From contig JAGCVX010000014.1 in the NCBI GenBank assembly GCA_017962145.1, positions 5,162-69,161 of the forward strand: a stretch of DNA of 64,000 bases, given 5' to 3'. This stretch comes from Clostridiales bacterium. Its GTDB lineage: Bacteria; Bacillota; Clostridia; Saccharofermentanales; Saccharofermentanaceae. Numbering within the stretch: position 1 is the first letter of the stretch; each line of letters starts with the position of its first letter. The notes beneath the pieces are model-generated. The model saw nothing but the letters and a program-made list of their open reading frames with translations, searched no databases and had not been told where the DNA came from. Positions 48,008-64,000 of this stretch are shown one piece after another. The translations under genes and the position numbers were made by a program.

Positions 48008-48239
48008 ATCATTATCCTCTCGAAATATTACAAATATTCACACTATACTCTAACACAAACGAACCGTGATTTCCATTTCTGTAAGGTTACAGTGCTCGGA
48101 ACAGGCGGAAGATCGGGCGATCCTTCCGGGCTTTTTCGTGCCCGTGCGTAACTTGTGTCCATGTGGTACAATGGTGCTTGCAGATTTGTATTCCTATTAA
48201 TACAGATTGCGAGAAAAGAATCGAAACCGAGGAACTGAC

Positions 48240-50996: not shown

Positions 50997-53749
50997 GGCC
51001 TTTAGATAAGCAAAACCGAGTCCAGTTTTCGGATATCAAGACAAAACTGTGCCTGATCGTTGCGATCGTGCTTCCGGCACTGCTTCTTCTTGCCGTGGCA
51101 TATAAGTTCAAACTCGCTCCGTTTGGATCGGACTTCTTTGTTACGCGTGCCCAGCAGGATACCTATCTTCCGGTCATTGCGGAATTCCATAGAAAAGTCC
51201 GCACAGGTGAGTCGTTGTTTTATACCTGGAACTGCGGTGGCGGCATGAATTTCTGGGCACTTCTCGGCTGTTACGGCATGAGTCCGCTGAATCTTTTATA
51301 TCTATGCTTTCCCGCATCGTCGATCCCGGCGGTGACAGAACTGATCTTCCTGCTCAAGGCATGTCTTGCGTCCCTTGCGCTCTTTTTGATGTTCTGGAAA
51401 AAAGAAGATCTCGTATCGCCCCTGACTGTGGCGCTTTCTACTGCGTACGGTCTTTCCGGTTATATGCTTTCTTACTCGCAGGAGCCCTGGATGCTCGATG
51501 CCGTGATCCTGCTTCCGATTCTGATCCTTACGCTTTCGCGACTGGTTCGGGGCAGAAGTGCCTGGCAGTTTTCCATCTGTCTGGCTCTGATCCTGGCCAC
51601 GTCATATCAGGCAGGATTCTATGCACTGCTCTTTGCTTTGGTCATGTTCCCGCTTCTTTTTATGGAGATGCGTTCCGAGGGCGGATCGGTCAAGTTTAAA
51701 ACCGCGCTGAAGGATCTGCTGTTCTATCTGTTCTTCGGAATCGGCGGTTCCTCGATTTGCTGGCTTCCGGTGATCCGGGCGCTGATGCGTGCCGAGGTAT
51801 CCTATCAGTCCCTGATGTTCCCGCGTGATCTGACGATGGACCTGAAGGTATGGGACATCCTGGAGCGCTTTTCTTTTGACGCCGCGATTTCTTTCCCTTC
51901 CGACGCCATCTCCTACCCAAGCCTGTACTGCGGTATCCTGGTCGTCTTCCTGGTGATCCTCTATGGTTTTTCCACGAAAGTGCGATTTGCCCAGAAAATC
52001 TACTGCTACTGCACGATGGTATTTATCTATGTAACGATGTCGAGCACCGTGTTCAATTTCCTTGTGCATGGGCTGCATTTCCCGATCACCGGCGCGTATC
52101 CGCAGGCGATCCTTCTGACTTTTATGGCGATGTATATGAGCGGCAGACTTCTGAGCACAGGTGTGCTCTTTGAAAAGAAGACCCATATCCAGGGTGCGGT
52201 TGCCATGATCGTCGTGTTTATGGTGATCAACTCGGCCATCAATACCGAGCTTTCCTATGCGGACTACGCAGTCTTTGTTGCGCTGATCCTCCTTCTGCTT
52301 TATACCGCGATGGCAAACAAGATCAACGAGATCGGAACGAAGAGATTTTCTTTCTGGGCTATGATGATCTGTATCCTGATGGTGGCGGAGACCGGTCTTT
52401 CTTTCTACCGCCCGATCAAGGAGAAATACTATGTCCGCGCCATGAAAAATCCCGTGCTCGATTCAAAACTCAATCAGCGCATCAGCGGAACGGCTCGAAA
52501 AGAAATGCTGGGAAAAGAAGAGAAGATGGTCTACGAACTGAGTTCGGAAGTGCTTTATCAGAAGCCGGATCCGGCTGAAGATGCGCTCATGAGCGATGTT
52601 TCGGAAAGACGTACCATATCCGGAAGATTCTCGGATTACGAACCGGAAAAAGAAAACTTCGGTCTGATCTACGGTGTTCCGACGCTGAATTCGAACTACT
52701 ATATCACGCCGTATCTTTTCTCCGAGGCCCTTCACGATCTGGGCATGACCGAGACGAAGGAAGGAACGATCCTTCTTTCCGGCGGCACGGTTTTCACCGA
52801 TTATCTCTTTAATCACGAACTTACCCGAGCAGAAGGATTCATGTCTCCGATAGCCAAGGGAGCCGAGTGCGCCCACGCGCTGGGATTCTTCACGAGCACG
52901 GATGAGATCTACTCTGATTTCAGAAAGTCCGATTCTCCTTTTGCCAATCAAAATGCACTGGCGCTGCAGTTTTCCGGCGTCGAGCCGTACGAGCTTTTGG
53001 AAACGAGTGTGGTGGAAAAAGATAATATCTCCGACAAGGGCGACGGTGCATTTGCCGTAGTCGACGCGGAAGTCAGTTCTTCGATCACATATTCTTTCGA
53101 AGCTTCTTATAATAATACTATATATATATACTGTGACAGTGAGCAGCCGGTCATCGCCGAGATCATGCACTGCACCGATGCCGGTCTGGAGTCCAGCCGC
53201 GAGCGTGTGACCTCCGTGCAGTCCAAGATGCTTCGTATCGATCCGTCTCCGAATTCCGGAAATACCATCCGTGTCCGTCTGATCATGTCCCAGCCGGAAA
53301 ATGAAACGGTGCATTTTTCTGCGGCGGTCCTCGATGAGGAGAAACTGTCCCTTTGCATCGAGCGCATGACCGCATCTCCGTTTATCGTTGAGAAGGAATC
53401 CGCGGGAGAGCTTCAGGGACACATCCAGGCACCATCTTCCGGAGATCTCTGGCTCTCTATCCCGTATGATGCCGGCTGGACCGTTGAAGTGGACGGAGAA
53501 AAGACTTCTGTATTTGCCGCAAACAAATCCTTCCTCGGTATCCACTTGACCGAAGGAGAACACGTTATTACTATGAAATATATGCCGCAGGGATTTACGA
53601 CAGGCCAGTGGCTGTCCCCGGTATCGATTCTGATGATGATCTGCGTGTATTCTGCATCTTTCGCTGCGAAGAAGCAGGCAGAAGCGAAGAAAAGAAAAGG
53701 GGAGGACGCTGCCGTGGCATCCGAATCTCAGGAAGAGGAGCAGGGATGA
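50993..53749 (+). CDS. YfhO-family GT-C membrane glycosyltransferase (paralogue)
   Basis: APFGSDFFVTRAQQDTYLPVIAEFHRKVRTGESLFYTWNCGGGMNFWALLGCYGMSPLNLL. Same architecture as the upstream copy, with a 4-nt overlap. Confidence 0.75.
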   Translation: MRPLDKQNRVQFSDIKTKLCLIVAIVLPALLLLAVAYKFKLAPFGSDFFVTRAQQDTYLPVIAEFHRKVRTGESLFYTWNCGGGMNFWALLGCYGMSPLNLLYLCFPASSIPAVTELIFLLKACLASLALFLMFWKKEDLVSPLTVALSTAYGLSGYMLSYSQEPWMLDAVILLPILILTLSRLVRGRSAWQFSICLALILATSYQAGFYALLFALVMFPLLFMEMRSEGGSVKFKTALKDLLFYLFFGIGGSSICWLPVIRALMRAEVSYQSLMFPRDLTMDLKVWDILERFSFDAAISFPSDAISYPSLYCGILVVFLVILYGFSTKVRFAQKIYCYCTMVFIYVTMSSTVFNFLVHGLHFPITGAYPQAILLTFMAMYMSGRLLSTGVLFEKKTHIQGAVAMIVVFMVINSAINTELSYADYAVFVALILLLLYTAMANKINEIGTKRFSFWAMMICILMVAETGLSFYRPIKEKYYVRAMKNPVLDSKLNQRISGTARKEMLGKEEKMVYELSSEVLYQKPDPAEDALMSDVSERRTISGRFSDYEPEKENFGLIYGVPTLNSNYYITPYLFSEALHDLGMTETKEGTILLSGGTVFTDYLFNHELTRAEGFMSPIAKGAECAHALGFFTSTDEIYSDFRKSDSPFANQNALALQFSGVEPYELLETSVVEKDNISDKGDGAFAVVDAEVSSSITYSFEASYNNTIYIYCDSEQPVIAEIMHCTDAGLESSRERVTSVQSKMLRIDPSPNSGNTIRVRLIMSQPENETVHFSAAVLDEEKLSLCIERMTASPFIVEKESAGELQGHIQAPSSGDLWLSIPYDAGWTVEVDGEKTSVFAANKSFLGIHLTEGEHVITMKYMPQGFTTGQWLSPVSILMMICVYSASFAAKKQAEAKKRKGEDAAVASESQEEEQG

Positions 53750-54765
53750 AGAAAGAAGGACTACATAGCCCGACAACATTTGTTGTTTTCGATATGGAAT
53801 GGAATCAGCCGATTCCTTATATTCCGTCACCCATTGATCCGAAGCTTCTCCCGGGTGAGATCATCGAGATCGGTGCGGTCAAACTCGTGATGTATTCCGA
53901 GTCCGAATATACTTTTTCCCAGCCGATCTCCATCACGGTCCGTCCACAGTATTACCGGATCATGAACAAACAGGTCTCCCGCGTCATCAACAAAAGTACC
54001 GACGACCTCAAGTGCGGCATGTCGTTTATCGAAGCGTATGACGATTTCCTCAGATGGTGCGGCGAAGATTTTATTTTGTGCGCATGGGGCGACTCGGATA
54101 TCTCGATTTTAAAATCGAATCTGAAGATCCACGGTCTTTCAGCGGAGATCAACGACCGCTTCCTCGATATCCAGCCGTTCTTCGGACGTGTTGCCGAAAA
54201 TACGACGCAGCAGAGAAGTGTAGCTTACGCGGTAGATTTTTATAAGATCAACCAGACAGATGATTTCCATAGTGCCGATAAAGACGCGTACTATGAAGCC
54301 CGCATCCTGAAAGAAGCCCTGGTGGATTATTTCGTGCTGAGAAATAGAGAACCGGCCTCGGACAATAAAAACCCGTTTCCGACTCTGAAGCAGTATATTT
54401 CGAATCCGAATCTGAATACACAGAAAAAATGGAAGAGTGCGGTTTGCAAGACGGAAAAAGAGGCGCTTGCCCTGGCTGTTGCAGAAAAGATGTGCTGTCC
54501 GATCTGCGACACGGATCTTCAGGAAGTGATCGGATGGTTTTCAAGCGGACACACATGGATGTCTTTGTGGCAATGTGAACAGCACAGTACCCTGTCGGCA
54601 AAGGTCCGTGCGAAGCAGACACCCCAGCAGGGATATTATGGTGCCGGCCAGCTTCGTTTTGTAAATGGCAACGCCGCGAGATACGTTCGAGAGAAATGGG
54701 AAGAAAAACAGAAATTGAAAGAAAAAGTTAAAATTGACACAAACCCACCCGATAATGAGGAGTAA
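53746..54765 (+). CDS. DEDDh 3'-5' exonuclease (KapD/ERI-1-like) with a Cys/His-containing C-terminal extension
   Basis: ATG 53746 overlaps the YfhO stop (ATGA). FDMEWN, WGDSD and HSADKDA motifs. The C-terminal part has CCPICD...CEQH. Confidence 0.6.
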   Translation: MKKEGLHSPTTFVVFDMEWNQPIPYIPSPIDPKLLPGEIIEIGAVKLVMYSESEYTFSQPISITVRPQYYRIMNKQVSRVINKSTDDLKCGMSFIEAYDDFLRWCGEDFILCAWGDSDISILKSNLKIHGLSAEINDRFLDIQPFFGRVAENTTQQRSVAYAVDFYKINQTDDFHSADKDAYYEARILKEALVDYFVLRNREPASDNKNPFPTLKQYISNPNLNTQKKWKSAVCKTEKEALALAVAEKMCCPICDTDLQEVIGWFSSGHTWMSLWQCEQHSTLSAKVRAKQTPQQGYYGAGQLRFVNGNAARYVREKWEEKQKLKEKVKIDTNPPDNEE

Positions 54766-54901: not shown

Positions 54902-56818
54902 ATGAAGTTTTTACAGACAAGTAAGCGACATCTGAACAGCAACAAACGAGGCGGCATGCTGGTTCTCGTTTTGATCATCTTTGCTGTAGCGCTTATTCTC
55001 ATTTCATCTGCAATTTCGATTACGGTATCTACCCGTAACCGTTATTACGTTGATGCCGAGACGAGCCAGGAAAGACTGACACTGTCGTGCGCAGCTGAGG
55101 CCGTGATCGATGCTATCGAAGCGCAGGAGATCACAGACGCAGAGCTCGAGCATGCGGCTGCCGGTTCCGGTACAACTTGGCACGTTCAAGGTGCAACGAA
55201 TTCGAATATGGACCAGTCTGGTGTTGCTAGTGACGGTCTGAATATCGCTCCTGGTCTTGCTGGTCAGTCATACAGCTACACGGATTGCCATGTACATGCA
55301 GTAGGTGGCACTTCTAAAGACATCTATCTGGACTTCAGCACAAAGATCAAAGCGACAGGCGGAACAGCAACAAGTGAGAATCTCCGTGTTCGCCTTGAGT
55401 ACACACCGCCGTCTGGTGATCCGCCGATCTGCACAAACCTTACAACAACAGGTGAAGATGGTGTTACAAACAACTCCCCGAAGATGTTTGTACAGGATCC
55501 GAGATCTTTCACAGTATTCCACGGTGAAGCTTATATCGCTGCAACATCCGGTTCTTTCATCCACAATACTGCAGTATTTACAGGTGAACTGATTGGCAAC
55601 GCTGGTACGATCTTCTATAACGACGTAATTTTCTATGGTCCGAATGCAGGACTTGACGTTGCTCGTTCCGGTGGTAATGGTCTTACCATCGAAGCGGTAG
55701 GCGATTGGCAGGGTTCTGCTTACTTCCTGGGCGTTACATATGAAGAGGCTACCGGACAGCAGTATGCTTTCCATAACCAAGGATCAGAAGTAAGTCTTTC
55801 TGACAAGAACCTGAATGTTTATGCTTGTTATTTCTATAATGCAAGAGGCCAGATCACAAGTTGGCCGTATGATGGCGCTGACAAGATGATTATCTCTGAT
55901 AACGGAAGTAACGTTCAAATCAACAGAGGTTGGACAGGATCCACAAATATCGTAACAGTAGGTACAGGTACTGGTAGTGGAGACAATACCGTTGCTAGTT
56001 CTGCGCTTACAGATGCGGCTCTTGTTGAGAAGTTTGCAAGTGTTTATGCTACAGGTACAGGATATGTTGCAAGTGGTGCCGAGGTTGTTACCGCTGCAGG
56101 TCGTCAGGTTCCCACATCCGCTGATATGGCTGCTTACAACACTCACCCGGGTACATCGTCTGTTCCGCATGGAACAACATCCATTTCCCGTGGTGCGTAC
56201 AACATGACCGGTGCTTATTCCGCTGGCGTGCTGACATGTGACCTTTCTTCCGGAGATATTTATATCAATGTAAGTGGTACATGTACTTTCACAGATTATT
56301 ACATCTATGCACCGAACACTTCTGACTACAAACTGTATGTGATTCTTCAGAGTGGTGCTTCCCTGATATTTAATAATTGCGACAATACGTGCAAAGATAC
56401 GCTTAGAACTTGTGGTATCGTTGCTTGCTCAAATCCTGAGCGTACAAACTGGCACGATGCTGAGTTCGTACAGCAGTACGATTCTACAGGACATTTTGTA
56501 TCATCTTCACCGTTGCGTGCGACACCTGGTCAGAAGCCGGCTTGCTACATCCTTGGTATGGGCAATAACTACCTTGAGGGTGGTCGTGCCTGCACAATTG
56601 AAGGCTATATCTGCCTCGGTGGTCGTGGTACACAGGCAAGTAAACTTTGTATCAAGGATAACTGCAACTTCTATGGACGTTACGAATCCGTTTTCATGGA
56701 TCAGGGTAACTCCGATAACCTGGAGATCTACTATTGCCCGTCACCGCAAGAGGGCGATGACAGCGACAAGCCGTTGACTTCCAGCTATACACCGGTAGAC
56801 TATCAGTACTACTACTAA
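54902..56818 (+). CDS. Large PilX/GspK-like pilus-associated protein (638 aa)
   Basis: N-terminus NKRGGMLVLVLIIFAVALILISSAI resembles PilX_N (prepilin-like, with no Glu at position 5). The rest is G/T/S/N-rich and beta-strand-like, with a Cys-rich C-terminal third. GGAGG RBS. Confidence 0.5.
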   Translation: MKFLQTSKRHLNSNKRGGMLVLVLIIFAVALILISSAISITVSTRNRYYVDAETSQERLTLSCAAEAVIDAIEAQEITDAELEHAAAGSGTTWHVQGATNSNMDQSGVASDGLNIAPGLAGQSYSYTDCHVHAVGGTSKDIYLDFSTKIKATGGTATSENLRVRLEYTPPSGDPPICTNLTTTGEDGVTNNSPKMFVQDPRSFTVFHGEAYIAATSGSFIHNTAVFTGELIGNAGTIFYNDVIFYGPNAGLDVARSGGNGLTIEAVGDWQGSAYFLGVTYEEATGQQYAFHNQGSEVSLSDKNLNVYACYFYNARGQITSWPYDGADKMIISDNGSNVQINRGWTGSTNIVTVGTGTGSGDNTVASSALTDAALVEKFASVYATGTGYVASGAEVVTAAGRQVPTSADMAAYNTHPGTSSVPHGTTSISRGAYNMTGAYSAGVLTCDLSSGDIYINVSGTCTFTDYYIYAPNTSDYKLYVILQSGASLIFNNCDNTCKDTLRTCGIVACSNPERTNWHDAEFVQQYDSTGHFVSSSPLRATPGQKPACYILGMGNNYLEGGRACTIEGYICLGGRGTQASKLCIKDNCNFYGRYESVFMDQGNSDNLEIYYCPSPQEGDDSDKPLTSSYTPVDYQYYY

Positions 56819-56871
56819 TAACAACTGATCTATTTCTAAGATGGCAAACTAATACGGAGAAAGTTGTTCCA

Positions 56872-56900
56872 GGGGGGCTCGAAAGAGCCCCCCTTATTAT
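56872..56900 (+). terminator. Rho-independent terminator after the PilX-like gene
   Basis: ggggggctc gaaa gagcccccc followed by ttattattt. Confidence 0.7.
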
Positions 56901-56920
56901 TTGCGGCAATGAATGAGAAT

Positions 56921-56967
56921 AAAAAGATCCGGCTTCATCTGATAATGTACAAGCCGGATCTTTTTTG
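56921..56967. terminator. Second hairpin, bidirectional in form
   Basis: aaaaagatccggctt / aagccggatctttttt arms with a 15-nt loop. Confidence 0.55.
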
Positions 56968-57380
56968 TGTAATGAATGCATATAACAAATAGATAAATAT
57001 GTAAAGGAAAGATCTCGGAGAAAATAAAAGAGAGCAAGCAAAAACGACTCGCCAGAACGCGGTATAAATGCGCTCGCGCAACAAAAATGAGATGAGTATC
57101 ATTTGCGGCATAAAACTCCGAAATGGTGCCAAAGAACGCGAAATTTGGCATAGCGAATAAAATGAGCATTTTAGATGAGTGTTTCATGCTGCCGTCGGAT
57201 ATGTTTTATTCAGCTTGAATACGGATCAGGAGCTTGAAAAAGTGTTTGGCAATGAACTTATACATATTAATGCAGCTCGAATAAATACGAGGCCTCTGGC
57301 GGGAATAATAGATATGCCATCTGCGGGTGAGTATATAATAACTACAGAAGTAGAGAAGAAGCGGCGTAAACGGAGTTTGA

Positions 57381-57421
57381 AAATAAAAAAAGTCCTGCCC
57401 CGAAAACCGGGACAGGACTTA
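57381..57421 (-). terminator. Terminator of the pilin operon
   Basis: The - strand reads aagtcctgtcccgg tttt cggggcaggact followed by tttttttatttt. Confidence 0.7.
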
Positions 57422-57443
57422 AAAACTACGAATGAATGAAGGA

Positions 57444-57971
57444 TTAAGTATGATCCTTGCTATAAGTGATAGAAGCAGAATCAGTCATCGCTGCCATATC
57501 TTTACAAGACGGACAATAAACTGTGATCTCATCATGATAAGCAACACCGGAAGACGGGTTGTCCATATCAACAAGATTCAGCGAGACTTTGACGCTCTTG
57601 GAACCGGGTATTGTTGTAAACTTAAGCTGAACACCCCACTTTTCAGTGCCGGCACCAGTATGATACTGCTGATAACTTGAAATAATATCATTAGTATTCA
57701 GCGTTACTCTTGTACCGTTTGAAGAAATTGTTTCAGTTCCGTCGCTACCAATCGTTGTAGCATTACAGAGATTGTTTGAAATTGCCATCAGATTGAGAGA
57801 TGCAAAATCGTGCATATCATTTACTGTTGCAACACGGAGATGACTCATCTGTACAGTAACGAATGTTCCGTAGATATAGCCCATCGTCATGCAGAGGATG
57901 GCAAGTACCAAAACCATTTCAAGAAGGGTAAAACCAACTCTTTTTTTCTTATTTTTTGTAACTCGTAACAT
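57444..57971 (-). CDS. Minor type IV (pre)pilin
   Basis: Class III signal KKRVG/FTLLEMVLVLAIL with Glu5. ATG 57971 follows GAGGTG. Confidence 0.75.
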   Translation of the reverse strand: MLRVTKNKKKRVGFTLLEMVLVLAILCMTMGYIYGTFVTVQMSHLRVATVNDMHDFASLNLMAISNNLCNATTIGSDGTETISSNGTRVTLNTNDIISSYQQYHTGAGTEKWGVQLKFTTIPGSKSVKVSLNLVDMDNPSSGVAYHDEITVYCPSCKDMAAMTDSASITYSKDHT

Positions 57972-57986
57972 AGCAATCACCTCGAA

Positions 57987-58544
57987 TCAAGTTGATGAAG
58001 CAGCAGTGAATGAGGGATAGTTTCTTACGAATACAGAGTAATCGCAGGAAGCGTTAGGACATTTACCAATAATGACCTTATCGCCATCCTCATTTGTTTC
58101 TACGAAATACTGCAAACCAAGATCAGGATGAGCGGAACAGCCACCTCTTGCAAGATATGTAAAACCATGTCTTGTAGCAGTCTGCTTAAAGTTGGCATCC
58201 TGCATCAGAGAAGTAGAAGAGAAGCCGGAAGATCCGCTTGACTCGTTAATTACATTTACCTGGATAATACTCTTAAAACCAGTGCCATAAACGCAGAGCG
58301 CAGTGGTAGAAGATCCACCGGGGTGATCCTGAGCACCACAGTTTGATGTAGCACCCATTGATTGATAAATCTTACCGGCATTTACATTACTGAAACGCTC
58401 AGCAAGCGCAGTATCAGCTGCATAACTCAGAGTAGACATGAAACCTTCGAGGGTGATAAGAGATACGATCATCAGTAACGCTACGGACAACATCGTTTCG
58501 AGCAATGTAAAACCGCGGCGCGATATCTTTTTGCGGCAAAGCAT
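57987..58544 (-). CDS. Minor type IV (pre)pilin
   Basis: Class III signal SRRG/FTLLETMLSVALLMIV with Glu5. GGAGGA RBS. Confidence 0.75.
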   Translation of the reverse strand: MLCRKKISRRGFTLLETMLSVALLMIVSLITLEGFMSTLSYAADTALAERFSNVNAGKIYQSMGATSNCGAQDHPGGSSTTALCVYGTGFKSIIQVNVINESSGSSGFSSTSLMQDANFKQTATRHGFTYLARGGCSAHPDLGLQYFVETNEDGDKVIIGKCPNASCDYSVFVRNYPSFTAASST

Positions 58545-58556
58545 CTGAATTCCTCC

Positions 58557-58772
58557 TTAATAACCCAAATTAACAAAACTTTGATTAATCTGCGCGTTAT
58601 TGGCTTTAAATTCGGATACTTGAGAACCGACCCTGTCAGAATTAGAACGGGCCATAGTAATGTACTGGCTTACCGAAAGGCCAACAACAGCAGCTAATAA
58701 AACAATTATCGCAATGACTAACACCATTTCAACCAAGGTGAAGCCTCGCTTGTTCTTATTAAACTTTTTCAT
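58557..58772 (-). CDS. Very short type IV prepilin (71 aa; predicted mature 61 aa)
   Basis: MKKFNKNKRG/FTLVEMVLVIAIIVLLAAVV... with no globular domain. GGAGGC RBS precedes ATG 58772. Confidence 0.8.
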   Translation of the reverse strand: MKKFNKNKRGFTLVEMVLVIAIIVLLAAVVGLSVSQYITMARSNSDRVGSQVSEFKANNAQINQSFVNLGY

Positions 58773-58798
58773 AATTGCCTCCAAGTATAACCATCTAT

Positions 58799-58826
58799 AT
58801 TATAACACCAAAAAACCAAGATACAA
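58799..58826 (-). promoter_or_regulatory. Sigma-A promoter with an extended -10 for the 71-aa pilin
   Basis: On the - strand: TTGTAT, 16-nt spacer including TGT, then TATAAT. Confidence 0.5.
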
Positions 58827-58904
58827 GACGTGAATTTGTAAACAAAATATAAATGAAAAAGCGGATCATTTGTGTGTTTCTCCAGGATCCATCTTCCATC
58901 CCGG

Positions 58905-58942
58905 AAAAGAAAAAATAGGGGGGACCCGTGATCCCCCCTATT
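58905..58942 (-). terminator. Rho-independent terminator directly after the 66-aa pilin gene
   Basis: The - strand reads atagggggg atcacgggt cccccctat followed by tttttctttt. Confidence 0.7.
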
Positions 58943-58979
58943 CAATTTACTTAGTACACTCAGTCAGTGAATCTCTGTA

Positions 58980-59180
58980 TTAGAGAGCAGCAGAGATAGC
59001 CTGGTTAACCTGAGAAATAGCACTGTTGTGAGACTGGATCTTCTGTGTAGCTGTCTTAGCTGCGTTGATGTAGCTAGCTACGGAGAAGAATACTACTGCT
59101 GCCAGGATAACGATGATAGCAATAACGAGTACCATTTCAACGAGTGTAAAACCTTTTCTGTTCTTCTGAATCTTCTTCAT
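58980..59180 (-). CDS. Very short type IV prepilin (66 aa; predicted mature 56 aa), likely the major subunit
   Basis: MKKIQKNRKG/FTLVEMVLVIAIIVILAAVVFFSVASYINAAK... AGGAGG RBS. It has a strong promoter of its own and its own terminator. Confidence 0.8.
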   Translation of the reverse strand: MKKIQKNRKGFTLVEMVLVIAIIVILAAVVFFSVASYINAAKTATQKIQSHNSAISQVNQAISAAL

Positions 59181-59220
59181 AATAAGTTCCTCCTAAATGT
59201 TTTATTGAGTTTGTAATTTC

Positions 59221-59248
59221 ATTATAGCAGGGAATTTGAAAAATGCAA
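59221..59248 (-). promoter_or_regulatory. Near-consensus sigma-A promoter for the 66-aa pilin
   Basis: On the - strand: TTGCAT (59248-59243), 16-nt spacer, TATAAT (59226-59221). Confidence 0.6.
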
Positions 59249-59264
59249 TACCAATTTTGAATTT

Positions 59265-59284
59265 TTTTCACATTTTTGTGAAAA
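59265..59284. promoter_or_regulatory. Perfect 8-4-8 palindrome upstream of the pilin promoter
   Basis: TTTTCACA TTTT TGTGAAAA. It begins 17 bp upstream of the -35 hexamer. Confidence 0.45.
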
Positions 59285-59483
59285 ATAATTTTTTGCTGTC
59301 AAAATGCGCCCACAATATCCATGTTTTCAGGCCCTGAAAAAAACCGGAATCCTGATCACAAATCAGCCAGAGAAGGCTTTAAATGGCGATTTCGGCTCCT
59401 GCTGGGGAACGGGATCCATGTCGCACTTCGTTAACAATTATATCAGAAGAAGGGAAGATTCAATTGTGACAAAATGTGAACAC

Positions 59484-59518
59484 AAAAAAAGGACCGGTTA
59501 AAAACCGATCCTTTTTTC
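59484..59518. terminator. Hairpin terminator after the pilO-like gene
   Basis: ggaccggtt aaaa aaccgatcc flanked by an A-run and a T-run. Confidence 0.6.
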
Positions 59519-59540
59519 TCTAATACTTATTATATACAGA

Positions 59541-60665
59541 TTAGATTGTAGGCTGCTGATTCATGTCAGCGTGACGCTGGTTGTAATCATCAACGAGTGC
59601 TGCATACTCTTCAGGAGTGATCATACCGAGCTGATAGAGCATATTGATCTCGAGCATCTCAGGATCCATATTCGCAGCATCCTGGAGCAGAGTATCGAGC
59701 AGAGTCCACTCAAATGCCCAGTGAGTCCATGCTGCGAACGGACGATTGACCTGGAAGTCATAGTCTACGAAAGAGATGAACTTGCCGTACAGCGGAGAAG
59801 ACGGGGATACAGTGTAGTTTGCACCACCGAACTTAACCATGAAGTAACTCGGAAGACCAACCAGACCACCAGTAGTAATATTCTCAGCGCCAACCCACTT
59901 CATGTAGTTCATGTCATAGTTCGGCTTAGAAATACGATCTACGAGATCATAAGCATATACATTTACTGTTGCGCTGTATGTGCAGAAGCCCTGAAGTGTA
60001 TCTTCGATCTTAATATCTGTAATCTTTACATAATCCGGAGCATCTGCCTGGATCTTCTTAAGAGCTTCGATGAACTCTTCGTAGCCGATGTACTCAGAAG
60101 AAATAGCGTAGGGATTTACGCCTGTTGCATCAGCCGCCGGGTTAACTACTTCCGGATTGTTTCCGATCAGAAGCTGATTTGTGTAAACAGAATACGGGAT
60201 ATCATCGCCTTCATCGTGTGTAAGAAGGAAACCGTCTGTACCGGAAACGGCTACAGTATAACGGGAATAAAATACCTGGTTACGGCTTGTAGAACCATCC
60301 GGCATCTGAGCCAACTCATACTCAAGAGGAGTATTGCTGATTTCTACATAATACGGTGTACCCGCATCTTCAAAGTGCTTATAAAGCTTTCTCTGGATAG
60401 CATCTGTGTACAGTTCAGGCAGGAACTTCTTTTCCAGTTCCGTGAGCTGGTTCTTCAGATCTTCGCACTGCTGATCCAGTTCCTGAGCCTGTTGGATAAT
60501 AGCGTCCTTTTCTGCCTTCTCCTGTCTTACCTGCTCAAGTTCAACGTTGGTTGCCTTGAGTTTATTCATATTCTTCTGAATGACGAGCAACCAGCAAACT
60601 GCACCCAGAGCAATCAGGAGAACAATGAACAATAAGAATGTGTCTCTACCACCTGTTGTTTTCAT
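59541..60665 (-). CDS. PilO-like T4P alignment protein (TM + coiled coil + large outer domain)
   Basis: N-terminal TM (FLLFIVLLIALGAVCWLLVI) followed by the coiled coil KLKATNVELEQVRQEKAEKDAIIQQAQELDQQCEDLKNQLTELEKK. Positioned after pilM/pilN. Confidence 0.45.
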   Translation of the reverse strand: MKTTGGRDTFLLFIVLLIALGAVCWLLVIQKNMNKLKATNVELEQVRQEKAEKDAIIQQAQELDQQCEDLKNQLTELEKKFLPELYTDAIQRKLYKHFEDAGTPYYVEISNTPLEYELAQMPDGSTSRNQVFYSRYTVAVSGTDGFLLTHDEGDDIPYSVYTNQLLIGNNPEVVNPAADATGVNPYAISSEYIGYEEFIEALKKIQADAPDYVKITDIKIEDTLQGFCTYSATVNVYAYDLVDRISKPNYDMNYMKWVGAENITTGGLVGLPSYFMVKFGGANYTVSPSSPLYGKFISFVDYDFQVNRPFAAWTHWAFEWTLLDTLLQDAANMDPEMLEINMLYQLGMITPEEYAALVDDYNQRHADMNQQPTI

Positions 60666-60686: not shown

Positions 60687-61598
60687 TTAGCCCTGAGCTG
60701 CTTCAGCTGCTGCAGGAGTATAAATGAACTCAATGTTCATATTAGTCGATACCTTACCAGTGAGCTGGTTGTTGCGAACAGCTTCATCCAACTCAGTCTG
60801 AGAAACGGCAACACCGTTGATTCTGATATTGGTGAGGTTGTATGTTACACCATTATCTTCGATTACTGCGATATCCGGAATCGAGAAATCAGAACCTGCG
60901 TTATAAGTCATTGTACGAAGCTGAGAAAGAGCAGCCGGTGAAGTACCATCAACAAAGGATGCCCAGGATACTGTGTAATGGCCCTTAATTGTGCATTTGA
61001 ATTCGAACTGATACTTCATCATAGAATACATCATACTCATGTTGTCCAGACCAAGTTCATTCGGATCAGCTGCCTTAATGGAATCAGTTACGAAGCTGAA
61101 AAGATCCTTGGAACGGAGCAGGTTAGCAAAATTAACCGGGCTGGTACGATCAAGGGAGAAGCCCTGGATGGTTACAGTGCCATCCTTATCTTCGTACTTT
61201 GTAATAACTGTATCATTCGGCAAGCTGTCAATAACGCCAACCAGTGTTTCAACAGAAGATGTTGTTGTTCCGGTTACAGCTGCATCGAGAGTAGAGATAG
61301 CGTAGTAGTACTCACGCAGTTTTTCAACGGCTGCCTGAGACTCATCTTTCGCTGCCAGTCTTGCCTGATAATCAGCAGATGCCATAGTTTCTCTGAGACT
61401 GTTGATCTCTTTTGTTTTGTTCATGATCTGGATACCGCAGATTACCCATACCAGCAATGTAATGATGATAATGGCAAGAGCGGTCAGAAGGAAGAACGGG
61501 AATGCTGACGAAAACTGTTGAGAAGCAGCAGAAGAGAACTCAGAAAAGAAGTTCATATCTCTTTTTGAAAACTCATTTTTTGACTTTGCAAAACTCAT
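60687..61598 (-). CDS. pilN: PilN-like T4P alignment protein
   Basis: ATG 61598 follows AGGAGG. A short cytoplasmic N-terminus, one TM segment, a coiled coil and a periplasmic-type domain. Immediately downstream of pilM. Confidence 0.5.
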   Translation of the reverse strand: MSFAKSKNEFSKRDMNFFSEFSSAASQQFSSAFPFFLLTALAIIIITLLVWVICGIQIMNKTKEINSLRETMASADYQARLAAKDESQAAVEKLREYYYAISTLDAAVTGTTTSSVETLVGVIDSLPNDTVITKYEDKDGTVTIQGFSLDRTSPVNFANLLRSKDLFSFVTDSIKAADPNELGLDNMSMMYSMMKYQFEFKCTIKGHYTVSWASFVDGTSPAALSQLRTMTYNAGSDFSIPDIAVIEDNGVTYNLTNIRINGVAVSQTELDEAVRNNQLTGKVSTNMNIEFIYTPAAAEAAQG

Positions 61599-61612
61599 GA
61601 TTTCGCCTCCTT

Positions 61613-62731
61613 TCAATTGTCACGAATGAGTGCACCGCACGCATTCACATAATCAGATAAGATGAAATCTTTCGGACCCTGAACAGAGTTGAGGGAACCA
61701 AGGATTTCAACCTGTGTACCAAGCTGACGGGAAAGTTCCTTATCCATCTTGCGGTACTTCGCACCACTACCATAGAGGAAGCATGTGCTGATCGCGTCGA
61801 GGTGGAATTTGGAAATCGAGAACTGAGCAGTTCTGGAAATAGCATCCGTCAAGCTCTTGAAGTAAGCGGATACGGCGCTGTTCAGCGACGGCTCGTCTTT
61901 TACTGTCTCGTGCCATACATCGATGTCGGAAACATCAACTGTGGCAATGCCTTCGCCCTTAACAACCTGCAAACGTCTTGTCAGGATAGAAGACTTGTTT
62001 GCAGAGCTGCCCTGAACTTTCTTCACGGTCTCGGCTACCTGACGGATGTTGGAGTGACCAAACTGCAGGCGGCGTGTCAGAACCGGGAAGCCCTTGTCCA
62101 GAACGGTGATATTGGTTGTCTTAGAAGACAATTCAATAAGAAGAAGGGTATTGGATGCGATGTTTGTTGTACCGTTGATCGTACCGCTTCTGAAAAGCTT
62201 ACGGATCGCATTCGGGTTAACATCAAGAGCAACAGGCTGCAGAGCACTTGTCTTCATCAGTTCACGGAAGTCGCCTGCGACGTCTTTCGGAATAGCTGTA
62301 GCACGTACTTTGTACTTCTGCTGCTTTGTTTCTTCATCAAGAACCTTATCGTAAATGATGTATTCTACGATCATGTCACGATTGTTGGTTCCCTGACCGA
62401 GGATCTCGTAGCGAACCATATCGCGGAGCTGATCAGCTTTAACTGCCGGCAGTTCCAAATCTCTTGTGTGCAGGTAACTGCCCTCTACTGTAAGGACGGC
62501 ACGCTTGTCCTGAATGTTGCTCTTTGCCAGAGCGTTCTTCAGAGCCATTACTACACCAAACTGGTCAGCAATAACACCGTCTGAAATTGTGTCGGACTCG
62601 AGCGGGATGATACCGAACTTCTCGACCTGGACTGTGCCGGTCTTACGGTTGTATCCGCCAAGAACCATTTTCATGTTTGAGCTGGAGACGTCAATTGAAA
62701 TCTCTCTGCTGCTTCCACTTCCTAAAGCCAT
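61613..62731 (-). CDS. pilM: PilM, actin-like ATPase-fold T4P assembly protein
   Basis: Size of ~372 aa and a typical PilM N-terminus (IDVSSSNMKMV...VIADQ...ALKNAL...AVLTVEGSYLHTRDLELP...QLRDMVRYE). Confidence 0.75.
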   Translation of the reverse strand: MALGSGSSREISIDVSSSNMKMVLGGYNRKTGTVQVEKFGIIPLESDTISDGVIADQFGVVMALKNALAKSNIQDKRAVLTVEGSYLHTRDLELPAVKADQLRDMVRYEILGQGTNNRDMIVEYIIYDKVLDEETKQQKYKVRATAIPKDVAGDFRELMKTSALQPVALDVNPNAIRKLFRSGTINGTTNIASNTLLLIELSSKTTNITVLDKGFPVLTRRLQFGHSNIRQVAETVKKVQGSSANKSSILTRRLQVVKGEGIATVDVSDIDVWHETVKDEPSLNSAVSAYFKSLTDAISRTAQFSISKFHLDAISTCFLYGSGAKYRKMDKELSRQLGTQVEILGSLNSVQGPKDFILSDYVNACGALIRDN

Positions 62732-62754: not shown

Positions 62755-63963
62755 TCACAGAATGTTCTTTGTCATTGTAAGTACCGGCAGACCGCAAGCA
62801 CCAACTACGAGCAATACGATGAATGCCATGATGATGATCATGATCGGCTCCATAGCAGCCGTCATCTTTGCTGTAGCAGAGTCTGCTTCGTCTTCGAAGA
62901 AGTCAGCGGCCTTATCAAGGATGTTATCCAGAGTACCGGATTCTTCACCGATAGCTGTCATAGCGTAGATCATCGGAGGGAATTCCTTGATACCGCGGAT
63001 AGATCTTGAAACAGAAGCACCTTTACGGATTTCGTTTCTGGAATCGTAGAGCTGAGCTTCCAGGTACTTGTTACCCAGTGTATGGCTTGTGATCTCCATA
63101 GAGTCCAGAACACTGATACCACTTCGGAGCAGTGTAGCCATAGTACGTGTGAAACGAGCAGCGGCAGTAGCCTTCTGTGCTTTACCGAAGATCGGTACCT
63201 TCAGGATAAACTTAGCCCAAGCCATGGATCCTCTCTCGGAATGCTTAAAGAGACGGAATCCAACGATGATACCGAGGATAACGGCAAGGTAGATATACCA
63301 GAAATGAATAAGGCTGTTAGAGAAAGCCATAACTGCCTTAGTCAGTTTCGGAAGATCACCACCCAGTTCTTTAAGGGTCTTAGCAAATCTCGGAACAACG
63401 AGGGTCATCAAACCGACTGTGATACCGAGGGTAACAACAGCGAGGATGATAGGATATACCAATGCGGCACCTACCTTGTTCTTCAATTTCTGTTCTTTTT
63501 CGAAGTGCTGGGCGAGACGGTCCATAACTTCATCCAGACGACCAGATTCTTCACCGGCGGAGATCATGGTGATCATGATCGTCGGGAGAGCCTTGGACTG
63601 CTCACGGAAAGCCTCAGACAAAGTTTTACCTGCCTGAATCGATTCATAAACAGAACCGATAACTGCTTTCGCCTTCTTACTTTCAAGCTGCTGATAGAGC
63701 ATATCCAGAGAACGGATAACTGTGATACCTGCACTCAAAAGTGAAGACAGCTGTCTGGTGATAAGCATAAGATCTTTTGTCTTGAGCTTCGGACTTCCGA
63801 TATTCATGGAAAGAATACTGGAACCGGTATCCTGCTCAAGAGAAGCAATGTAACGGCCATCGGCACGAAGCATCTTAGAAGCATCTGCTAATGTTGCGGC
63901 TTCAATAATGCCCTTGCTTGAACGACCAGCTGCATCGACTACTTCATATTTGAAATTTGGCAT
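62755..63963 (-). CDS. pilC: PilC/GspF-family T4P platform protein
   Basis: MPNFKYEVVDAAGRSSKGIIEAA start. Duplicated T2SSF domains (LSSLLSAGITVIRSL and LATLLRSGISVLDSM). Confidence 0.85.
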   Translation of the reverse strand: MPNFKYEVVDAAGRSSKGIIEAATLADASKMLRADGRYIASLEQDTGSSILSMNIGSPKLKTKDLMLITRQLSSLLSAGITVIRSLDMLYQQLESKKAKAVIGSVYESIQAGKTLSEAFREQSKALPTIMITMISAGEESGRLDEVMDRLAQHFEKEQKLKNKVGAALVYPIILAVVTLGITVGLMTLVVPRFAKTLKELGGDLPKLTKAVMAFSNSLIHFWYIYLAVILGIIVGFRLFKHSERGSMAWAKFILKVPIFGKAQKATAAARFTRTMATLLRSGISVLDSMEITSHTLGNKYLEAQLYDSRNEIRKGASVSRSIRGIKEFPPMIYAMTAIGEESGTLDNILDKAADFFEDEADSATAKMTAAMEPIMIIIMAFIVLLVVGACGLPVLTMTKNIL

Positions 63964-64000
63964 GAAGCAAACCTCCTTCTTTTATTTTCTACTTGTAGTA

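Follow-up and report, generated by a model that had tools for sequence, protein, structure and literature searches.

The mature forms of 1,955 type IVa pilins had a mean length of 141 ± 25 amino acids (aa) (PMC11046646), and the pilin sequences in a Gram-positive training set had a median length of 144 aa (PMC3244431). Short pilins were discussed only in connection with Flp/Tad pili and with Geobacter and related bacteria (PMC4471445, PMC7212644, PMC10710030). The Tad pilin of Caulobacter, which has 45 residues, formed a filament of ~50 Å on its own, with a rise of 4.9 Å (PMC10710030; cryo-electron microscopy also in PMC11067988). In Geobacter, the globular domain and nothing else was supplied by a separate polypeptide, PilA-C, whose gene directly followed pilA-N (PMC10710030). 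Pro22 was found in all published bacterial type IVa pilus structures and underlay the melted segment of their alpha-1 helix; Tad pili and the toxin-coregulated pilus (TCP), which had no Pro22, were built of continuous helices (PMC10710030). Here, we describe a type IV pilus locus at the end of a 64-kb window (i.e., the whole stretch of DNA that was analysed, 64,000 nucleotides of Clostridiales bacterium contig JAGCVX010000014.1) that encoded two prepilins of 66 and 71 aa, neither of which extended beyond the alpha-1 helix.

Current reviews and structural papers treated headless pilins as a Tad speciality and Geobacter PilA-N as half of a split subunit, and our literature search returned no description of Saccharofermentans pili or of short, headless, or truncated pilins in Firmicutes/Clostridia. 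We lean, with moderate confidence, toward the view that a type IVa-type machine in a monoderm, Clostridium-like rumen bacterium uses the 56-aa mature form of the 66-aa prepilin as its major subunit and that the resulting filament is headless. A filament of headless subunits had been raised in a preliminary description of this DNA, which was made without database searches; it was the best supported of the readings that we compared, and we still infer it rather than observe it.

Short prepilins and pilus machinery

The two short prepilin genes were located on the minus strand as follows. All coordinates are positions in the window, and related loci were viewed with 10 kb on either side of each.

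58980-59180, minus strand: prepilin of 66 aa (56 aa when mature), helix-only; proposed as the major pilin (N_methyl, E=4.4e-9)
58557-58772, minus strand: prepilin of 71 aa (61 aa when mature), helix-only with Gly-Tyr at the C-terminus; proposed as a minor or adaptor pilin (N_methyl, E=2.1e-8)

The N-termini of the 66-aa and 71-aa prepilins were MKKIQKNRKG/FTLVEM and MKKFNKNKRG/FTLVEM, respectively (the slash marks the cleavage site). Both prepilins had a 10-residue leader, Gly-1, Phe1, Glu5, and Tyr27, and both had about 20 hydrophobic residues after the cleavage site and no sequence beyond the alpha-1 helix. Over mature residues 1 to 20 there was one difference, at position 15 (I in the 66-aa prepilin and L in the 71-aa prepilin), and the common sequence was M-K-K-x-x-K-N-[RK]-[KR]-G / F-T-L-V-E-M-V-L-V-I-A-I-I-V-[IL]-L-A-A-V-V. 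The matches to PF07963 (N_methyl; 36.0 and 33.8 bits for the 66-aa and 71-aa prepilins, gathering score 21.2) and to TIGR02532 (30.5 and 29.0 bits, cut-off 16.3) were well defined. By sequence, then, Gly-1, the hydrophobic N-terminus, Glu5, and the profile matches placed both proteins in the type IV pilin superfamily. The preliminary description had reported the two genes, their class III signals, Glu5, Tyr27, and the lack of any sequence after the helix, and every detail that we checked was correct. When the six reading frames of the window were scanned for the prepilin motif, only four prepilins were detected, namely these two and two larger ones that are considered below.

A search of 5.8 billion proteins yielded 743 homologues of the short pilin, and the best 120 were all 62 to 75 aa in length. 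When 1.84 billion representatives at 50% identity were searched with a profile, 441 of them matched at E <= 1e-10. Mature lengths and residue frequencies were counted in the 136 sequences with a recognisable cleavage site among the best 150 of these 441 representatives. The mature length was 70 residues or less in 120 of the 136, and two size classes were apparent: one of 53 to 60 aa and one of exactly 61 aa (44/136), in which 36 of the 44 sequences ended in Gly-Phe or Gly-Tyr. The preliminary description had named truncation or frameshifting of longer pilins as a possible flaw in its proposal. Such events were excluded by the lengths of the best 120 homologues and by the recurrence of the same lengths in about 40 species-representative genomes. 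In the window itself, a terminator hairpin lay 36 nucleotides (nt) after the stop codon of the 66-aa gene, no pilin-like frame was found in the 207 nt downstream of this gene, and the stop codon of the 71-aa gene was 12 nt ahead of the next gene.

The distant matches (other Clostridia, Patescibacteria, and Proteobacteria) were ordinary pilins of at least 100 aa. Because the nearest head-bearing relatives recovered were mostly pilins of other Clostridia and Bacillota (Clostridioides difficile [L044], Ruminococcus, and Acetobacterium), the truncation was probably independent of that in Geobacter. Four long relatives of 213 to 345 aa (P0311, P0314, P0320, and P0335) were modular and consisted of an alpha-1 helix without Pro22, a low-complexity linker rich in Thr, Pro, and Gly, and a C-terminal beta-rich module. 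This arrangement of short-pilin helix, linker, and module suggested that the helix alone is the assembly unit. In source databases, members of the family bore no names other than "type II secretion system protein" or "PilA," and no NCBIfam equivalog covered the short pilins. The preliminary description had asked whether such pilins were already characterised; the family is common in its clade and uncharacterised, with no published description found in our literature search.

To map the family, one genome per species was scanned with the N-terminal patterns of the short pilins. About 40 loci were identified in Saccharofermentans, Mageeibacillus, "Ruminococcaceae bacterium" (including the cultured strain KHP2, L022), and unclassified Clostridia; Saccharofermentans and Mageeibacillus are placed in the Oscillospiraceae by NCBI. 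In about 25 of the ~40 loci, all in the Saccharofermentans/Mageeibacillus group, a cassette of four pilin genes followed pilB-pilT-pilC-pilM-pilN-pilO. The recurrent pattern of mature lengths was 56, 61, ~160 to 220, and ~165 to 235 aa. Over the cassette loci, the mature products, in gene order, were 52 to 64 aa, 61 aa (17 of 21 loci), ~117 to 243 aa, and ~160 to 383 aa in length, and the second pilin nearly always had a G[YF] C-terminus in the 21 cassette loci. The remaining loci were orphans with a lone short pilin, often in genomes that also held a cassette. Orphan genes were located away from pilus genes and between unrelated genes (L009, L013, L014, L017, L019, L021, L024-L030, and others), and an orphan shared a metagenome-assembled genome with a cassette in the case of L009 (with L007) and L030 (with L023). 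The orphan short pilins may be alternative major pilins.

AlphaFold2, supplied with 25 family members, predicted that the 66-aa prepilin forms one uninterrupted helix spanning residues 13 to 65, with a mean predicted local distance difference test (pLDDT) score of 89. A Foldseek search of the PDB with this model produced zero matches; a lone helix holds no usable fold signal. Independently of the model, column entropy over mature residues 23 to 54 of 120 sequences showed a sharp 100-degree periodicity (power 202, versus 68 or less at the other angles tested), and the 61-aa family showed the same periodicity. The conserved face of the helix comprised V24, Y27, L28, A31, A34, I38, H41, N42, I45, V48, and I52, and the positions between were variable and polar. 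Hence, one face is probably buried against neighbouring subunits and the other behaves as an exposed surface. We also observed that His41-Asn42 was near-invariant (119/120 and 118/120 sequences) within the otherwise variable C-terminal half of the 56-aa pilin.

Two residues that break the helix in classical type IVa pilins were missing. Position 14 of the 56-aa pilin was Val and position 22 was Phe; position 22 was Phe, Leu, or Ile in the family, and Pro22 and Gly14 occurred in only 2 and 1 of the 136 representatives, respectively. In a sequence search of the PDB, the best matches were Geobacter PilA-N structures (9egp, E=5e-11; 7tgg; and 2m7g/6vk9), with similarity that was limited to the N-terminal ~45 to 50 residues common to all pilins.

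The pilus operon at the end of the window was on the minus strand and consisted of pilC, pilM, pilN, and a PilO-like gene, followed by the four prepilin genes. The machinery genes were as follows.

62755-63963, minus strand: pilC, platform protein, 402 aa (Pfam T2SSF, E=1.5e-61, two stretches)
61613-62731, minus strand: pilM, 372 aa (Pfam PilM_2, E=1.8e-18)
60687-61616, minus strand: pilN, 303-309 aa (Pfam PilN, E=3.6e-6, exceeding the gathering score)
59541-60665, minus strand: PilO-like protein, 374 aa (assigned by its place after pilN)
1115-1990 of contig L002, minus strand: A24-family gene beside pilB, divergently transcribed (Pfam A24_N_bact, E=4e-32)

The exact locus was present in ruminant-gut assemblies, and contig L002 was 100% identical to the window from pilC through the fourth pilin gene. 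This contig allowed us to read beyond position 64000, where the preliminary description had proposed to look for pilB, pilT, and a prepilin peptidase gene. L002 contained pilT (373 aa, T2SSE), pilB (558 aa, MshEN plus T2SSE, E=1e-132), and the A24-family gene, a candidate for the peptidase gene. PilB and PilT were 70 to 97% identical in every cassette locus that extended far enough upstream, pilC was 60 to 90% identical across all cassette loci, and pilM was 92 to 95% identical in the closest genomes. The PilO-like protein had a membrane helix at its N-terminus and a coiled coil, followed by a long C-terminal domain; a Pfam search gave no PilO match and only a weak GspM match (E=0.0077), and the gene kept the same position in all cassette loci. 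Judged from its gene content, the locus has the PilB, PilT, PilC, and PilMNO set of a type IVa pilus system, with PilO assigned by position only.

The A24-family protein was divergent in part. No Pfam Peptidase_A24 match was found in its C-terminal ~190 membrane residues, and the proteins of relatives aligned well over the N-terminal ~140 residues only. A candidate Asp in "MKD" was conserved, and a putative second catalytic Asp ("TSD") was absent in KHP2 (L022).

Transcription units and codon usage

To compare the regulatory regions of the short pilin genes, we aligned eight genomes whose pilins were only 62 to 80% identical. The following features were identified.

59266-59283, minus strand: inverted repeat TTTCACAAAAATGTGAAA, ~20 nt upstream of the -35 element (near-invariant in six of the eight aligned genomes)
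59221-59248, minus strand: promoter of the 66-aa gene, with TTGCAT at 59248-59243, then 16 nt, and TATAAT at 59226-59221 preceded by TG at 59229-59228 (sequence and alignment)
59189-59194, minus strand: Shine-Dalgarno sequence AGGAGG, 8 nt ahead of the ATG of the 66-aa gene (sequence, conserved in the alignment)
58913-58943, minus strand: intrinsic terminator after the 66-aa gene (14-pair stem, then a T-run)
58799-58807, minus strand: second promoter, extended -10 element TGtTATAAT, upstream of the 71-aa gene (TGnTATAAT conserved in the aligned genomes)
57390-57420, minus strand: intrinsic terminator ending the minor-pilin operon (14-pair stem, then a T-run)

The -35 element of the 66-aa gene, TTGCAT, matched the consensus at three of six positions, and TGcTATAAT was a perfect extended -10 element. 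A generic consensus promoter scan missed this promoter because of the weak -35 element, and it was found via the eight-genome alignment. The motifs TATTGCAT and TGnTATAAT were invariant in 8/8 aligned genomes; indeed, the promoter, the Shine-Dalgarno sequence, and part of the 5' leader were invariant, and the flanks diverged. A G-rich hairpin and T-run were found at the same place after the 66-aa gene in all eight genomes. Thus, the 66-aa gene was a single-gene unit running from promoter to terminator. The 71-aa gene was followed directly by both larger prepilin genes, and the three genes formed one operon. The inverted repeat TTTCACAAAAATGTGAAA may be an operator or a regulator binding site.

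Codon usage was compared in 43 window genes. The 66-aa gene had C-ending codons at 14 of 18 NNY positions and G-ending codons at 10 of 12 Lys, Gln, and Glu positions, and both fractions were the highest of the 43 genes. Its G+C content at third codon positions (GC3) was below that of all 34 background genes. In the 71-aa gene, only 5 of 18 NNY codons ended in C (Fisher p=0.007 for the comparison with the 66-aa gene), and the genes for the 71-, 185-, and 175-aa prepilins had the lowest C-ending NNY fractions (0.26-0.36).

The 66-aa gene was located directly after pilMNO, which is the canonical position of a major pilin gene. Taken together, the conserved expression signals, the codon bias, and the existence of orphan paralogues marked the 66-aa gene as the likely major pilin gene. 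The 71-aa gene headed a separate operon of low codon bias that it shared with the larger prepilins, and for this reason its product resembles a minor or adaptor pilin. An abundant major pilin accompanied by an operon for minor pilins of low abundance would be expected to give such a pattern. The preliminary description had assigned both short pilins as apparent major subunits, based in part on the layout of the 66-aa gene. That layout was borne out for the 66-aa gene, with a conserved promoter, Shine-Dalgarno sequence, and terminator and with codon bias in addition; the assignment did not stand for the 71-aa gene.

The minor-pilin operon (57444-58772, minus strand) was unusual in two other respects. 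The GC3 of its genes was 0.35 to 0.40, versus 0.52 to 0.69 in the 34 background genes, and its genes were ~50% identical between genomes whose PilM proteins were 94% identical. The low GC3 and low identity suggested that the tip module evolves quickly or is exchanged.

Larger prepilins and neighbouring genes

The remaining genes of the cassette and the gene that converged on it were as follows.

57987-58544, minus strand: prepilin of 185 aa with a head rich in Cys and His; proposed as a minor pilin (N_methyl, E=2.1e-5)
57444-57980, minus strand: 175/178-aa prepilin (ATG at 57971), proposed minor pilin (N_methyl, E=9e-5; class III motif VG/FTLLEM)
54902-56818, plus strand: 638-aa clade-specific protein, convergent to the operon (N-terminal sequence, conservation)

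The two larger prepilins had been listed in the preliminary description as prepilin-like, and the N_methyl matches and the motif scan indicated that they were real. The 185-aa prepilin had 23 homologues, all within this clade. In an alignment of 18 homologues, C136, C162, and C167 did not vary, and a His was frequent three positions beyond C136 (C-P-x-H ... K-C-x5-C-x-Y). In the minor-pilin head of a strict anaerobe, these Cys and His residues may form a zinc knuckle or a set of disulphides. AlphaFold2, run with 18 homologues, predicted an N-terminal helix and beta strands with a pLDDT of 51, which was too poor for a fold search. The 175/178-aa prepilin was conserved as the fourth gene of the cassette.

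The N-terminus of the 638-aa protein, KRGG/MLVLVLIIFAVALILISSA...AAEAVID, was hydrophobic and without Glu5, and it was highly conserved in 46 clade-specific homologues, all of which were unannotated. Searches of Pfam, NCBIfam, and the PDB found no match to the protein. Its gene adjoined the cassette in L004-L007 and L037. Tip subunits of the GspK/PilX type are without Glu5, and the N-terminal sequence of the 638-aa protein, which is the sole basis for this assignment, makes a PilX/GspK-like tip subunit or an adhesin possible.

Two genes of ~920 codons (48207-50996 and 50993-53749, both plus strand) were located two genes from the pilin cassette. The downstream gene and its L001 neighbour were recorded as YfhO-family membrane glycosyltransferases (PF09586). 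These genes kept their synteny with the cassette in L004-L007 and in L037, and the pilins were Ser/Thr-rich. A DnaQ/RNase T-like exonuclease of 385 aa (PF00929, E=2.8e-8; 53608-54765, plus strand) was encoded by a gene located between the YfhO genes and the 638-aa gene, and it was syntenic with both in close relatives. The synteny of the YfhO and exonuclease genes with the cassette was seen only in close relatives and L037, and it may be incidental. The 625-nt gap at 56819-57443 contained terminators for the 638-aa gene and for the minor-pilin operon, along with small open reading frames (ORFs) that were unconvincing. Some clostridial pilin genes are controlled by cyclic di-GMP (c-di-GMP) riboswitches; an Rfam search of positions 56500 to 59700 returned nothing at gathering score, and the matches within the 625-nt gap were all sub-threshold.

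Interpretation and comparison with known systems

The findings that were read directly concerned gene content, conservation, signal motifs, helix prediction, transcription-unit layout, and codon bias. They are consistent with a pilus in which the components are the PilB extension ATPase, the PilT retraction ATPase, PilC, PilM, PilN, the PilO-like protein, and an A24-family prepilin peptidase. In such a pilus, the prepilin would be cut after Gly-1 in KNRKG/FTLVEM, and the subunit would be a single continuous amphipathic helix. Residues 1 to 22 would form the hydrophobic core of the filament, with contacts between Glu5 and the N-terminus, and residues 24 to 52 would pack by their conserved face and leave the opposite, variable, and polar face as the filament surface. 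Because Gly14, Pro22, and the head are all absent, the packing would be expected to resemble that of Tad and archaeal pili (i.e., continuous helices, a small axial rise, and a thin fibre) rather than that of classical type IVa pili. The 61-aa pilin and the two head-bearing prepilins, expressed from their own weaker operon, would probably form a priming or tip complex together with the 638-aa protein, and this complex would carry any adhesive function.

Several points weigh against a headless filament. The prepilin cleavage, the assembly of a filament, its packing geometry, the parts played by the minor pilins, and the biological function (be it adhesion, twitching, or DNA uptake) were all deduced from sequence, and the AlphaFold2 helix was predicted for a monomer only. 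The codon bias was calculated from few informative codons (18 and 12). The 64 kb and the ±10-kb regions that we viewed would not reveal a longer major pilin, or a partner consisting of the head only, if it were encoded elsewhere. The catalytic half of the A24-family protein was divergent, and prepilin processing may therefore need another enzyme or be unusual. Finally, the similarly short Geobacter pilin did not make a filament by itself and needs PilA-C (PMC10710030).

This last point, along with the fact that Geobacter PilA-N structures were the closest solved structures by sequence, would fit a split pilin in which a separate, non-pilin head analogous to PilA-C binds each short stalk and produces a normal-looking type IVa pilus. 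We regard such an arrangement as very unlikely at this locus. The structural similarity covered only the N-terminal region that pilins share in general, and Pro22, which PilA-N retains, was absent. The 66-aa gene was followed by a terminator and 207 non-coding nt instead of a head-only gene, a layout without such a gene was kept in about 25 genomes, and the orphan short pilins stood alone among unrelated genes. The ORFs after the 71-aa gene did not supply the missing head either. The preliminary description had suggested that the short pilins might pair with the 185- and 175-aa proteins in the way that PilA-N pairs with PilA-C, and this suggestion was not supported: each of the two has a class III signal, a Glu5, and an alpha-1 helix of its own; hence, they would enter the filament as separate subunits (i.e., minor pilins). 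It is unlikely, too, that the short pilins are accessory proteins (a low-abundance stalk, a primer, or a regulatory subunit) and that a conventional head-bearing major pilin is encoded elsewhere. Only part of the genome was viewed, several pilin genes are common in Clostridia, and published pilins are much longer (141 ± 25 aa, PMC11046646; median 144 aa, PMC3244431), all of which would agree with an accessory role. On the other side, the 66-aa gene occupied the canonical major-pilin position with strong, conserved expression signals and with the highest codon bias of the genes compared, the scan with the N-terminal patterns of the family gave only short pilins from these genomes, and the extra copies in the same genomes were also short.

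A different use of the same subunits, as a short endopilus (pseudopilus) that acts inside the cell wall as a piston for secretion or DNA uptake, also seems improbable. A thin, helix-only fibre would cross thick peptidoglycan easily, an exonuclease gene was located nearby, and the paper on the Geobacter pilus structure, judged from its title in the citation by PMC11046646, describes the short-pilin filament there as secretory in behaviour rather than as a nanowire. However, a dedicated PilT and PilMNO are typical of surface type IVa pili and not of Com systems or type II secretion systems, the variable polar face and the multiple divergent paralogues suggested an exposed surface under diversifying pressure, and a large tip-like protein was linked to the locus. 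As for the idea that a frameshift, a nonsense mutation, or a misassembly cut the short ORFs down from longer pilin genes, genes this short are often miscalled, and we nonetheless give the idea practically no weight. Length and sequence were conserved over hundreds of independent assemblies, the terminator came right after the stop codon with no pilin-like frame downstream, and the conservation pattern was that of a helix under selection; the homologue lengths, the recurrent cassette, and the representatives at 50% identity refuted such decay. Com operons are not known to include pilT and pilMNO. A competence pilus was considered as well, and it was rejected because the NCBIfam profile pilin_ComGC (NF040999) scored 18.5 and 17.9 bits with the short pilins, far below its cut-off of 75, and because pilT and pilMNO were present.

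If the short pilins do form the filament, then the globular head would be dispensable for a retractile, type IVa-type pilus. Nature would also have supplied a test of whether Pro22, helix melting, and axial rise are linked as proposed, and one 56-residue helix would offer a minimal scaffold for engineered protein fibres. At least one cultured strain, KHP2 (L022), carries the genes, which makes experiments possible. In the rumen, members of the Saccharofermentans group could use the pilus for adhesion or motility. Until now, the helix-only design has been known only in Tad pili and, as a split subunit, in Geobacter, and the family described here is a large and conserved one in abundant rumen and gut Clostridia that is served by a full PilB/PilT machine.

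The type IVa pili of monoderms (Streptococcus sanguinis PilE1/E2, Clostridioides difficile PilA1, and Clostridium perfringens PilA2) were similar in locus organisation, with pilB, pilT, pilC, pilM, pilN, and pilO followed by the pilin genes, with two related pilins adjacent and with minor pilins downstream. Their major pilins are ~105 to 170 aa and have a beta-sheet head, whereas the head is wholly absent from the short pilins described here. With regard to the canonical features of a type IVa major pilin, the short leader and Phe1 are present, and Pro22, Gly14, and the globular head are absent. ComGC is likewise short, all-helical, and from monoderms (PMC7212644), but it differs in having a helical globular head (alpha-2 and alpha-3).

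Geobacter sulfurreducens PilA-N (2M7G and 6VK9; "geopilin domain 1") is similar in size. It is also a mature pilin of ~60 aa that consists essentially of alpha-1, with a short leader, Phe1, Glu5, and Tyr27, and it is served by a type IVa-type machine with PilB, PilT, PilC, and PilMNO. However, PilA-N keeps Pro22 and its partner PilA-C is encoded directly downstream (PMC10710030), and both of these features were missing at the locus in the window. The hosts differ as well, since Geobacter belongs to the Desulfuromonadales and the organism in the window is monoderm and Clostridium-like. The criteria for Geobacter e-pilins are an aromatic content of at least 9.8% and aromatic-free gaps of no more than 22 aa (bioRxiv 10.1101/668343). 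Aromatic residues made up 4/56 (7.1%) of the 56-aa pilin and 5/61 (8.2%) of the 61-aa pilin, both below that content, and Tyr27 was the last aromatic residue of the 56-aa pilin, which left an aromatic-free tail of 29 residues. Thus, a conductive e-pilin was rejected on aromatic content; the preliminary description had given the same aromatic counts and had rightly made no claim of conductivity.

Flp/Tad (type IVc) pilins, such as Caulobacter crescentus PilA, share the helix-only form of 40 to 60 aa, the lack of a C-terminal domain, and the lack of Pro22, and they set the precedent for a filament (~5 nm) built from such subunits without a partner. They differ in that residue 6 is Tyr in these pilins and Met in the pilins described here, which have Phe1 and a type IVa-type leader. 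The short pilins had no match to Pfam Flp_Fap and only sub-threshold matches to Flp1_like (14.3 and 19.0 bits versus a cut-off of 33.5). The machinery was also distinct: Flp/Tad pili use CpaF(TadA), TadBC, and TadV, whereas PilB, PilT, PilC, and PilMNO, with a separate retraction ATPase, were encoded here. The short-pilin family is therefore one of type IV pilins in a type IVa-type system, yet it departs from the features of canonical type IVa pilins, of the Geobacter split pilin, and of Flp/Tad pilins. We tentatively suggest, with somewhat less confidence than we place in the headless filament itself, that the family represents a third class of helix-only type IV filament, one that evolved independently. 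In this class, a PilB/PilT-driven, retractile type IVa machine of monoderm Clostridia would polymerise a 56-residue helix without Pro22 in a Tad- or archaeal-like packing, a 61-residue pilin of fixed length would be the adaptor to a head-bearing tip, and the bare helix would be a general carrier of linker-fused passengers.

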